A DNA stretch of 64,000 nt, taken from Schmidtea polychroa (taxonomy: Eukaryota). Both the position numbers and the translations under genes were made by a program. The notes beneath the pieces were generated by a model. That model worked only from the letters and a program-made list of their open reading frames with translations, had not been told where the DNA came from and ran no database searches. The stretch is from positions 27,406,001 to 27,470,000 of the forward strand of contig CM097885.1 of assembly GCA_044892525.1 (NCBI GenBank), given 5' to 3'. Below are positions 21,831-56,565 of this stretch, one piece after another. Positions within the stretch are counted from its first letter, which is position 1; each line of letters opens with the position of its first letter.

Positions 21831-24800
21831 GTTGGGAGAAATATCGCATTCGAAAAATCTACCAACTAGAAAATAAAATACTAATAAATAAAATAACCGG
21901 TAATAAATTAATTAATAATATGAAAATGTTTTAAATAAATAAATTTAAAATTGAAACTAAAATATCCAGTAAACTGATATAATGATAAAAACTAAAATAA
22001 AACTAACTAAAATTATTTAAATTATAAAATTTAAAAAACTAAATCGTAAAAATTAATAAAAATTAAAAATATTTGATTAATTAAACTAATTAAATTAAAA
22101 ATAAAGAATTACACACACTCATGCATGCATGCAAAATTAATTCAAATTTTATCGCATTCTTATTGGATCTAGTGCAAGAAAATGCATGCACAGTAAAAAT
22201 TAGTATAAATATTCATTGAAAATTCAGTCAAACAACTAGTTTAACTGGAAATCAACTTATCATTGTGTAAACAATTTTAGGAGCTCTCAGTTTTCGGTTC
22301 ATGTCATTGCGGTAAGTTAAATTGGATTTTGGTAATTTTATGTAAGACATAAATTAATGTAATGGTTTAATAAAACTTTAAATTTAATTTAGTTGAGCTA
22401 TTTTTGTTGTGTTTTGTTGATCGTTTTATTGTTTATTTCGTTTTTTGAATTTTCAGGAATATTTATAATTTATCTGAATGTTATGTAATTCGATGTTATT
22501 AATATTTTTCTGATTTATGTGTTGAGGTCCCAATATTTGAAACACTCAACTTTGCTGGTTCTTATATAAATAAAACCAAGTCTCGTATAAATATTTATTA
22601 ATAATAAAAATTACCTAAAATAAACAATGCAGGTTTCCAAATAAAATCGTGTTATCAATTCAAACAACTATTTCTTTTATTCAATTTCCTTTAAGCTACT
22701 TTAAAATGACTGCAAATGTGTATTTTGTTAATATGCTATGTAATACGTGTTTATGTAAAAATTACTGCATTTTAGAAAATTTGTGAGACAATTCTGTGCT
22801 ATCTTATTTCTCTGGGTTAACCTTCGAAATCGCTATAACGCTAATTTTTGGCAATTGTTCTAAATATTATTGGGGTATATATACTATTCCTTAAGATTAA
22901 CAAACAAATTATTTTAATTTCCGGCCTATACGCACGGAATAATATTATATAAATTTAATATATTTTACCAGATGTTAATATTAATTATATTTTTAATTTA
23001 TTCTACAGCAGATGTTATTTATAATAATTTTTTTTTCAATCACAAATTGCGTGCACTATTAATATTATATATTGTTTTCGATGACGAAATTGATATTTTT
23101 ACTTTGTCTTTTCATAATAAACTATTGTATTTGTATCACTTTTAAATCGAGGAGCTCTAGGGTCGCGAAATATTTTAATGATAACTACATTTGTGATCAA
23201 GATTCTACAGATGCTCGATAAAATTTCTTTTATTCTCTTTAGTGAACCCATCCTTCGAACAGTTCCCCGTGAACGTTGCTCTTGATATGAATTGGCTAGA
23301 CAGGCAGAACATGCCGAATCGCTGGTATGGAAATAATGCCGAATTTAATCAAACTGGTTTCGTCCAGAGTTCGTGTAAAGCTAAACAAGATGGATGATTG
23401 AGGAGGACCAGACGATAATGAGGGCTCTAAATGCCACGATTCCATAGCAACTCCAGCAAATCACACTATTGAGAGTTTACAATCATATGGACGCGGGTTT
23501 TAGAAGGAACCAACATATGCAGACAGGAACTCTTTCATGCAATATGAATACTCCTGTCCATGTCATCAAGTCAATTTGTAGTCAAAAACCCTCAAGAAAG
23601 AAGCCTATGAAAATACAAAGTAAAATTTACTTTTCGATTCAGATCTCTTAAAACTTTCTGTAATAAAAAGTTAGCAAATAACCTTAATATTCGTTTATTT
23701 CGTTTTTGTTTACATATTTATTTTTGTGTGTATAAATTATGTGACAAAACAAATTTGAAAAATTAAATTATTTCTATTATTTTTCAACTTTTATTGAATT
23801 TTACTTGCGGTTTCGGCTCTTTTCTAATTAGTTATTTTTTCTTTTAATTAATTTTAATTTCTTTTTTCAGTGTTGGGCTAGAACTGAATTCTAGACCCAA
23901 AAACTTTAATTTGTGACTAAGGTGCGTGGGTACATAACACACAAATACCAATAAGTTCAGTTAAATATAAAAAATACATCAAATAAACAATATTAATTAA
24001 GAGGAAATAAAATGATATCAATGCAAGAAGTAGTGCAAGAAACTAACTCAAAAATAGCAAAGAAACACAAAATTACAAAAAAAAAACAGACTCGAATAGA
24101 TTAGAAAGATGGTAAAACATTAAAAATTCTAGCAAAATCCCAGAACATTTCATAAGAATGGCGACGACCATCATAAAAGCCACATAGATCAATAAAAGTT
24201 AACAAAAATAAATAAATTAGTTATAAAAATAAAAATTCAAAAAAAAAATTAAGAAAACATCATTAAAATAAAAATTAATTAAAAATTAATATGGAATGTT
24301 CTGGAATCGTTTTAAATCCATCATGGAGGTAACTTTAGCAAAAAATAATTAGAAAATAAAACTTCAAAAATAAAAACAAAAATTATGGCACTAAAATTGC
24401 CATTAAAAATATCAAAAAGAGAAAATAGAAAATTCTAGAATAAAAAGAATTCGGGTTTGTTTTAATGCATCAATACATACACGTGTACTTTCACAAACGA
24501 AAATAGGTATATATACCAACGCATTTTAGTCACAAAACACTCTTTATGCCAAATTCATTTTTGATTTTGTGAACAATACTTGGAGAAACCTTAATAGTAA
24601 AAAGTACTTTATTTACGTTATAGTGTATATTTTATCATTAATGTATTATGAAATCCATATTACAATAGATGGATAGGAGTCCGCTAGATCAGGGGTCCGC
24701 TGGATCACATACCCCCACCCCCCCCTAGGGGAAATTTTTAAAATTCTTTTCAAGGTCAAATTTTTTAATATAAAGCTCATTTTTTTTTATTTGAAATTCG

Positions 24801-25435
24801 AGAGTTCCCGACAAGAGATATTATTATTGGAAAATAAAGGTCTTTTAAACACAGGGGTTATTATTATATATACTCCGAGTTTATCCGACAAAATATTTTA
24901 TCCCCCTATGGGTAATGCTCAAAAGGGTACTGCTCACGCTCAACAACTCACAAGGGTATTATTAAACAAATCAATAAAACATACATCTATTTAAACAATA
25001 AAATAATTTAACAAAGGTTATGTAAATACAAAGTCATTTTATTATTATGATTACTATTTTTATTAATATTACTATTATTACTATTACTATTATTATTATT
25101 ATTATTATCATTATTATTATTATTATTATTATTATTATTATTATTATTATTATTATTATTAATATTATTATTATTATTATTAATATTATTATTATAATTA
25201 TTATTAATATTATTATTATTATTATTATTTTATTATTATTATTATTATTATTATTATTATTATTATTATTATTATTATTATTATTATTATTATTATTATT
25301 ATTATTATTATTATTATTATTATTATTATTATTATTATTATTATTATTATTATTATTAAGATTTACAAAATTATCATTAGTTTTCGTAAAAATGATAATA
25401 AATTAAGACATTAAAAGATTAAAAGATATATTATA

Positions 25436-54823: not shown

Positions 54824-56565
54824 ATTAAATAGCCCAATTCTTCAACAATCCAATGCATCAAATAGCAACCAACAATTCAATCCCTCAATTAGATTCATCA
54901 AATGATGACAATAACTTCTGTGTGATGAATTAATATGGACCTATTCATTTTTCATTCTGTATATAAAATTTTAGTGTATCTTATTGACATTATTCTATGT
55001 GCCCTATTTATTTCATTGTGTGACATTCTATGTATTTCTAACTTTATTTATTTCTATTTCTATTTTTATTTGTGATTGTATTGGTAAACACAAAAAATAA
55101 ATATATATATAAAGGGTAATTAATATTTATAGATAATAATAATAATTATTATAACAATAATAATAATGGCAATAGTAATAGTAATGTTAATGATGATAAT
55201 AGTAGTGATAATTAATTAATTAATATGAAATAAAAATATTTGGAATTTAATCAATCTAACGAGACTGAAAGAATTTAAAAGAGTGAAATTTAATTCTGAC
55301 GAGACTGAATAAAATTTAATATAATTAATTTATATGAACCAAAATTCACTATATAAACGACTCACAAAGTCAGTGCAGTCGCCCAAAAATCTAGCGAAGA
55401 ATTTTTCTTTATTCAAGGGTTAATCCTGCGGATAAATTAATAACTGAATCAGTACAGAAAGATTCACAGAATATAAAAACTTACTAAGACATACACGCAC
55501 ACATAACAATTAACAGATACATAATTCTTACACGCATTTCAGTGAAAGAAATCGATCAATAATTGTCAATCTATTTAGAATCGAAATTTGTAGAAATTTG
55601 GTAATTTTTGATTTCAATAAACATTTATATACACTTATTTGCTTTGTTATATATATAAGAACCAGTAGGTTGAGTGTTCCCGAATATCGAGACCTCAACA
55701 ATAGTAATAGTAATAATAGTAATATTAATAAAAATAGTAATCATAATAATAAAATGACTTTGTATTTACATAACCTTTGTTAAATTATTTTATTGTTTAA
55801 ATAGATGTATGTTTTATTGATTTGTTTAATAATACCCTTGTGAGTTGTTGAGCGTGAGCAGTACCCTTTTGAGCATTACCCATAGGGGGATAAAATATTT
55901 TGTCGGATAAACTCGGAGTATATATAATAATAACCCCTGTGTTTAAAAGACCTTTATTTTCCAATAATAATATCTCTTGTCGGGAACTCTCGAATTTCAA
56001 ATAAAAAAAAAGAACTTTATATTAAAAAATTTGACCTTGGAAAGAATTTTAAAAATTTCCCCTAGGGGGGGGGGGGGGTGGGGTATGTGATCCAGCGGAC
56101 CCCTATCCATCTACTTATTACCCTTTAATTTTTTCATTTTCTTTTGGATTATTGGATGTAAGAGTGATTAAAGTCGTACAGATTATCTGCGCCTCTGATC
56201 AGTCCTACATTCAACCATGTTATAAAATATACTACAGCAACATGCAGACACGTATTATCTTTATTATAAATCTTTTTTTGTTCGGTCATCGGATGTCGTC
56301 CTCTTCATGGTTCTGCCATGGAGTTGTGTCGATATAACCCCTCCGCTATGGCTCCAACTATTTATTATAGGTCGACAGCGTTATGTTTCGAATCAACACA
56401 ACAATAGGGCTTGTCGTAGCGGTCACAGTGGGGCCTGGTAAGCAAGCATTCTTCCCGACTTTGAGTGCAGTACAATTAAAATCAACAGTAAAAATTTTGT
56501 ATATTACTTTACACTAGGACTTTAATTGAGTAGACCTCAGACCTAAATTGATCACAGCTCTACAA

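Follow-up and report, generated by a model that had tools for sequence, protein, structure and literature searches.

A decayed palindromic Polinton in Schmidtea polychroa and its family of two-armed, polymerase-only derivatives

Is a palindromic Polinton with the same broken polymerase gene in both arms a one-off replication accident, or does it represent a lineage? The question is raised by the element at positions 24664-56115 of a 64,000-nucleotide stretch of Schmidtea polychroa DNA (assembly GCA_044892525.1, contig CM097885.1, positions 27,406,001 to 27,470,000 of the forward strand), hereafter the window, each arm of which carries a gene for a protein-primed DNA polymerase (pPolB). A preliminary description had taken the element for the snap-back product of an already defective genome. 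Our analysis places it, in damaged form, in a family of palindromic Polinton derivatives carrying pPolB only. We further propose, with a probability of roughly 70%, that it is a decayed chromosomal copy of this family, which would have spread by its own polymerase and a borrowed integrase, and that its arms were re-equalised by conversion after insertion.

The palindrome in the window

One 6-bp target-site duplication (TSD), TATTAC, brackets the whole unit at 24658-24663 and 56116-56121, as the preliminary description had it, and the element runs from AATAG at the left (one change from AGTAG) to CTACT at the right. When the window is compared with itself, inverted matches join 25039-29195 to 42170-37990 and 24691-25094 to 56104-55697, and the direct matches are two pairs of long terminal repeats (LTRs). 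The left arm occupies 24664-29194 (4.5 kb) and the right arm 37991-42188 plus 55701-56115, with a 13.5-kb gypsy element between its two parts. The features are as follows.

24658..24663, forward strand: left TSD, TATTAC
24664..25038, forward strand: outer terminal repeat, left end, with AATAG for AGTAG and an extra 16-bp unit; 4/380 substitutions relative to the right end
25039..25358, no strand: AAT/TTA microsatellite of the left arm
25361..29194, reverse strand: left core arm, pPolB with frameshift and premature stop (PF03175, E 9.6e-26)
29195..31845, forward strand: left end of a different Polinton-type element, with a AGTAGGTAG end, tandem repeats and no Polinton gene matches
31846..32999, forward strand: inner right arm remnant, upstream of the right pPolB; undamaged copies have this segment in either arm
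33000..37982, forward strand: nested gypsy LTR retrotransposon 1, identical 318-bp LTRs, TSD TTCAC
37991..41826, forward strand: right core arm, pPolB with the same frameshift and stop as the left
41827..42188, no strand: AAT microsatellite of the right arm, into which gypsy 2 inserted (TSD ATAG)
42189..55700, forward strand: nested gypsy LTR retrotransposon 2, LTRs differing at 9/980, used as a clock
55701..56115, reverse strand: outer terminal repeat, right end, finishing in CCATCTACT
56116..56121, forward strand: right TSD, TATTAC

With the AAT microsatellites excluded, the core arms differ by 5 substitutions in 3,834 bases (0.13%) and have no internal gap; the differences include a T/I exchange at 27868/39317 and a stop at 38161 in the right arm only. 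The outer terminal inverted repeats (TIRs) are more divergent, with 4 substitutions in 380 bases and indels that include the 16-bp unit. The polymerase is read from frames 27558-29267 and 25778-27691 in the left arm and 38164-39627 and 39494-41407 in the right, with the same frameshift in both, and both copies have the same premature stop about 110 codons short of the family's end. Thus the near-identical arms of about 4.5 kb including pPolB, with a shared frameshift and nonsense codon, are as they had been described. The gene, although broken in the window copy, matches PF03175 with its motifs aligned; two other profile scans missed this match, though the alignment is unambiguous. The right-arm stop at 38161 may disable nothing, because both the first Met in frame (codon 121) and the part held in common with the pPolB of the likely helper Polintons discussed below lie downstream of it. 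Open reading frames and Pfam revealed no Polinton capsid, packaging ATPase, protease or integrase frame inside the palindrome, the only integrases being those of the two gypsy elements; the lack of capsid, ATPase and integrase reported earlier is therefore upheld.

The centre of the window copy is not of the family type. Instead, 29195-31845 is the end of a foreign Polinton-type element, which joins the inner right arm by a deletion at about 31811-31846, and both the far end of this element and the family's normal centre are deleted. Relatives of the foreign element (L071/L072, L044/L093) likewise take the form of long inverted repeats and have TSDs. The foreign end (29194/29195) and gypsy 1 (37983-37990) were inserted within about 4 bases of one mirrored position upstream of pPolB, which may be a hot spot or chance. 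Gypsy 2 (only 13.5 kb) contains, in order, gag, a Bcl-2-like gene, a mononegavirus-type fusion protein, protease, reverse transcriptase (RT), RNase H and integrase, and also holds a 791-codon frame with no Pfam match; an excerpt of PMC6431247 gives the order gag, Bcl-2-like, mononegavirus-type fusion protein, protease and RT for planarian Burro elements, so that gypsy 2 by itself points to a planarian as the likely host. Outside the palindrome, two adjoining frames at 56850-59108 (282 and 469 codons, the latter without Pfam match) resemble a broken DNA transposase.

A two-armed family with a selected polymerase

We searched the animal's own genome with a 1.5-kb pPolB query and scored 40 of the 4,068 candidates, the sample to which the counts of inverted pairs and of remaining matches refer. 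Eighteen of the 38 full matches outside the window form 9 inverted pairs. The remaining 20 include six that are two-armed and amount to five distinct copies (one insertion being assembled twice), two mirrored centres with an interrupted second arm and one match running into capsid genes, the rest being truncated. Ten more loci, picked by their centre, have pPolB in both arms (seven loci), in one arm (two) or in no arm (one). The genome search suggested by the preliminary description thus led to 21 other two-armed copies being read, with a perfect 6-bp TSD in 12, a mismatched one in 1 and an end missing or not read in 8.

The undamaged layout runs from the outer end through pPolB and about 3 kb of non-coding DNA to a small centre with inward-facing Polinton ends, followed by the mirror image, the whole within a 6-bp TSD. 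Nine two-armed copies measured end to end span 9.7-16.6 kb. Arms in the family reach about 7 kb (7.2 kb at most); in the 9 inverted pairs they are 98-99.8% identical within a copy and 92-98% identical to the window arm. Internally the arms stop at a constant junction, beyond which the inward-facing Polinton end begins, and the flanks of the small centre are mirror images with no direct duplication. This inner junction is common to copies with 88-98% arm identity. A 20-mer across it has 60 exact matches in each orientation (control 0), and among the 100 junction matches listed there are at least 24 inward-facing pairs, 359-1,178 bp apart; a 22-mer of the outer end has 37 and 40 matches. No integrase, capsid, ATPase or protease match was found inside the two-armed copies scanned by tblastn, as the short “MCP” matches at their centres are terminal-repeat sequence contained in the query frame.

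The family varies around this layout. One 4.3-kb miniature (L109/L110) consists of outer ends and a mirrored centre without pPolB. In four copies (L101, L105, L111, L113) the inward-facing centre ends differ in type while the flanking junction stays constant, and such variable ends look as if termini had been exchanged with co-replicating Polintons. In L107/L108 the arms are identical across 3,760 bases and share the same broken frames, despite a Penelope-like element (RT and GIY-YIG) in one inner arm. L117/L118 and L103 combine the family's centre and inner arm with a pPolB only 59% identical and with different outer ends; the L117/L118 arms show 5 differences in 6,415 bases, the divergent pPolB and the other outer ends being present in both.

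Next we compared the polymerases of 29 elements (11 two-armed copies and 18 single arms). Overlapping duplicates were left out, as were L075 (which duplicates L077), the pPolBs of the helpers and the divergent arm L064. Variants common to at least two elements comprise 176 nonsynonymous (N) and 280 synonymous (S) changes, an omega (dN/dS) of about 0.22; for four two-armed copies compared in pairs, dN/dS is 0.13-0.18 at dS 0.10-0.48. Stop-free frames of 1,250-1,291 codons were found in both arms of three copies, and an open-frame copy matches PF03175 with E 2.9e-27. Stops account for 2 of the 456 variants shared between elements, only one internal frameshift position is common to different elements, and the frameshift of the window copy is absent from all the other elements compared. 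Collectively, these patterns indicate that the family polymerase has evolved under purifying selection and was not dead at its origin; the earlier suggestion of an already defective parent is not supported. Because broken copies leave almost no descendants, we infer that the polymerase works mainly in cis.

Likeness of the arms and its possible causes

As gypsy 2 is inserted in the right arm, the Polinton must be older than gypsy 2, whose two LTRs differ at 9 of 980 positions (0.9%), with a tenth difference visible at LTR base 2. About 35 arm differences would be expected from this clock; the comparison, proposed in the preliminary description, shows the core arms to be significantly more alike than the LTRs (Fisher p=4e-4), and they are also more alike than the outer TIRs (Fisher p=0.006). 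The window arms have thus probably been made alike by conversion from one arm to the other, at a time when the element was already in the chromosome. Likewise, the frameshift and stop shared by the window arms are likely to have arisen after insertion and then been copied from one arm to the other; the nearest relative found is 2.0% away.

Changes private to one element point the same way. Those present in both arms number N98 (including 5 stops) and S44, with omega about 0.69, and those in one arm only N30 and S9; in the window copy N19 and S7 private changes lie in both arms. In each of 10 paired copies the two arms of one element group together. For the insertion assembled twice (C4, C176), the same arms group together across the two contigs, and 2 arm-specific sites in 1,504 columns are identical in both contigs. 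The outer TIR behaves differently: its private changes lie in both arms in 15 cases and in one arm in 22, compared to 422 and 55 for pPolB (p=7e-11), the former count coming from 14 copies and the latter from 9-14 copies per segment, where fewer comparators inflate the “private” class. From the centre outward arm identity follows no monotonic gradient, and only the outer TIR stands out. Conversion may accordingly be weaker at the outer ends, and at the window copy it would be cut off there by gypsy 2. Conversion in the chromosome appears the simplest mechanism, because replication through a panhandle should equalise the termini first, yet it is the outer termini that differ more.

Several points weigh against this reading. 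With 40 of 4,068 candidates scored, changes counted as private may have unsampled sisters; the both-arm private changes fall slightly below the neutral expectation (p=0.048), so that part of them would predate insertion; and an LTR pair can already differ when it inserts. The L063/L064 arms do not pair, the right arm being about 90% identical to the window arm and outside the clade; they are not among the 10 paired copies and were excluded from the variant count. One of the open-frame copies is altered beside polymerase motifs A and C, an open frame being no proof of function, and the capsid-bearing Polintons L043 and L081 carry this family's pPolB, so the selection signal could partly stem from complete elements. 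Contigs of four public runs, compared with the centre and left arm, do contain sequence of the family, but in pieces too short to distinguish the arms.

An unlikely alternative is that the arms were equalised only during extrachromosomal fold-back replication, dead copies being replicated and integrated in trans and the breaks predating insertion. The pairing of arms by element agrees with it, as do the omega slightly below 1 for both-arm private changes and L117/L118, where a divergent pPolB and different outer ends occur in both arms around the same centre. It accords poorly, however, with core arms younger than both gypsy 2 and the outer TIRs when panhandle replication should equalise termini first, with the mutated left terminus (AATAG), with the failure to find a sister within 2% in the scored sample, and with the rarity of shared stops and shared internal frameshifts. 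We regard as slightly less probable still that the palindrome is real but its core arms owe their near-identity to consensus calling or polishing across arms. The likeness of the arms is seen in the assembly, and such an artefact would both raise it and spare the differences in the outer parts, which adjoin unique flanks, as observed. Yet 39 one-arm changes and many one-arm indels have been kept, two separate contigs of one insertion preserve the same arm-specific sites, and each 4-kb window arm has different neighbours on both sides. A palindrome produced by a missed sequencing adapter is excluded by distinct flanks with matching TSDs.

Palindromes could also have many separate origins in the chromosome, whenever conversion extends one terminal repeat of a complete Polinton, each a dead end with a selection signal inherited from its parents. 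The capsid-bearing loci with this family's pPolB would fit, and excerpts of PMC3673629 describe terminal repeats expanded by conversion in linear organelle DNAs. However, copies whose arms are 88-98% identical have the same inner junction, pPolB is of a different type at 8 of the 9 pPolB-bearing capsid loci (66-79% in the C-terminal part), and no mirrored pairs occur among the 40 capsid-gene places scored; we consider such repeated formation improbable. Least credible of all is a single local snap-back event or a pair of independent insertions. The centre of the window copy is unique, as one event would predict, but one TSD surrounds the unit, which rules out independent insertions, and 21 other two-armed copies were read. 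Of the snap-back product first proposed, the fold-back origin from one Polinton end survives, while the one-off event does not, the two-armed build being a family trait.

Origin, helpers and comparison with known systems

Complete Polintons are abundant in this genome; Polintons are reported to be derepressed upon RNAi of smedwi-2 (PMC8532177). At nine of ten capsid loci fetched, one pPolB follows the protease gene on its downstream side; eight of these resemble the palindromic family at 66-79% in the C-terminal part and one at 93%. The latter, L043, is 76% in the N-terminal part and looks recombinant, and the capsid-bearing L081/L082 carries this family's pPolB; with L117/L118, they indicate that exchange continues. 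An ordinary Polinton also shares the window with the palindrome, 8 kb away and not part of it:

1..16589, reverse strand: neighbouring ordinary Polinton, likely helper type, with protease, major and minor capsid, integrase and ATPase genes

Three of its parts, the left end, a RING gene and the only pPolB, lie 5.8 kb before the window (TSD ATCGCG). Inserted in this Polinton, at 1984-7528, is an element of 5.5 kb that has Polinton ends and encodes a RING-finger protein (TSD AGTATA); its ends are of the type seen at palindrome centres. A bipartite genome, with a polymerase segment and a capsid segment, was rejected, as 9 of the 10 capsid loci and the window's neighbour have their own single pPolB by the protease gene.

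The ends of complete Polintons start with the same AGTAGATGGAT as those of the palindromic family, which makes the neighbouring Polinton's family a likely source of integrase; the earlier proposal that the element integrated without an integrase of its own is supported, none being encoded in it. The arm order of TIR, pPolB and intergenic region corresponds to the left part of a complete Polinton and ends just before the protease gene, and the shared mirrored centre suggests one fold-back origin. In the founder, a mini-Polinton would have been nested in a larger Polinton, between its pPolB and protease genes; the displaced strand of the larger element would have folded back at the inverted ends of the smaller one and been extended on its own left half, so that a second polymerase arm replaced the half with capsid and integrase. 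Panhandle-mediated end repair of adenovirus minichromosomes is a comparable process; the founder could also stem from conversion in the chromosome. The polymerase, kept by purifying selection, would then have acted mainly in cis, with integration through the integrase of complete Polintons. After insertion copies decay near-neutrally, most new changes including stops being found in both arms, presumably through intrachromosomal conversion between them; the window copy was damaged further when its centre was deleted and when two gypsy elements and another Polinton-type element inserted. An origin by fold-back, activity in cis and the use of a borrowed integrase are hypotheses drawn from sequence.

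A broader interpretation, which we put forward tentatively and at slightly less than even odds, is that these elements form a class of self-complementary Polinton satellites, in which a transferable fold-back centre can make any Polinton's polymerase end two-armed, with pPolB supplied in cis and integrase, perhaps also capsid, borrowed. It is suggested by the occurrence of the same centre with a 59%-identical pPolB and different outer ends. If so, the folded single strand would already be double-stranded over the pPolB gene, and the integrated copies would be dozens of natural reporters of arm-to-arm conversion with built-in clocks.

The fold-back “racket” model of Polinton replication is a proposal, and to our knowledge Polinton replication has not been directly observed. 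A family built entirely as fold-backs, with a selected polymerase and no capsid or integrase gene, supports at the sequence level both a panhandle intermediate and a division of labour among Polinton derivatives, and is a candidate half-way stage from Polintons to linear plasmids. The nested retrotransposon clock suggests that conversion between inverted repeats is frequent at ordinary chromosomal positions and can be measured at dozens of loci. Pipelines that demand integrase or five core genes, as in excerpts of PMC10748475, likely miss such elements. The window palindrome is real. No two-armed pPolB Polinton appears in the titles and abstract openings searched, a search that did not cover most subscription papers or Repbase, which may contain the family, and the term “palindrom” has 0 occurrences in PMC10748475 and PMC8097293.

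With Polintons (Mavericks) the family shares a pPolB with exonuclease and polymerase motifs, AG...CT ends and a 6-bp TSD, and complete elements with related ends and related pPolB occur in the same genome. Available parts of the published accounts give TIRs of 46-1,447 bp in vertebrates (PMC8097293) or 100-1,500 bp (PMC10748475), and one pPolB together with integrase and capsid genes (PMC8097293, PMC10748475, PMC6431247, PMC11161782). The palindromic family, in contrast, has repeats of up to about 7 kb, the whole pPolB twice and nothing else found encoded; lacking integrase and capsid module and having oversized repeats, it is not a member of the autonomous Polinton class.

Linear plasmids and transpovirons derive from Polintons or Polinton-like viruses through loss of the capsid module, according to parts of PMC11161782, and in linear organelle DNAs conversion has lengthened the terminal repeats so that they take in 50-700 nt of DNA polymerase genes (excerpts of PMC3673629). 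As far as these sources go, the palindromes resemble them as replication-only descendants and in gene duplication into inverted ends by conversion; they differ in being nuclear, in integrating with TSDs, in doubling a whole gene and in repeats that make up almost the entire element. The Y-chromosome palindromes, in an excerpt of PMC3403216, have an arm divergence of 0.02-0.03% compared to 1.44% between related copies and undergo arm-to-arm gene conversion. Palindromic Polintons are similar in that divergence between arms is far below that between copies (about 0.2% vs 2-8%), and by both the nested LTR clock and the outer TIR the arms of the window copy are more alike than age allows; unlike the Y palindromes described there, they are mobile, measure about 15 kb and occupy dozens of loci, and conversion would spread disabling mutations in them instead of keeping host genes intact.

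The preliminary description had also likened the element to a defective interfering genome, and this holds for shape, with one terminus duplicated in inverted orientation, but not for the replicase, which is kept under selection. As in copy-back and snap-back defective viral genomes, structural genes are lost, and some dependence on a helper is likely; the palindromic family departs from such genomes in its selected replicase and in being long-lived and integrated, and with its own pPolB under purifying selection it lacks only integrase and capsid. Taken together, the palindrome integrates like a non-autonomous Polinton and is shaped like a copy-back genome.

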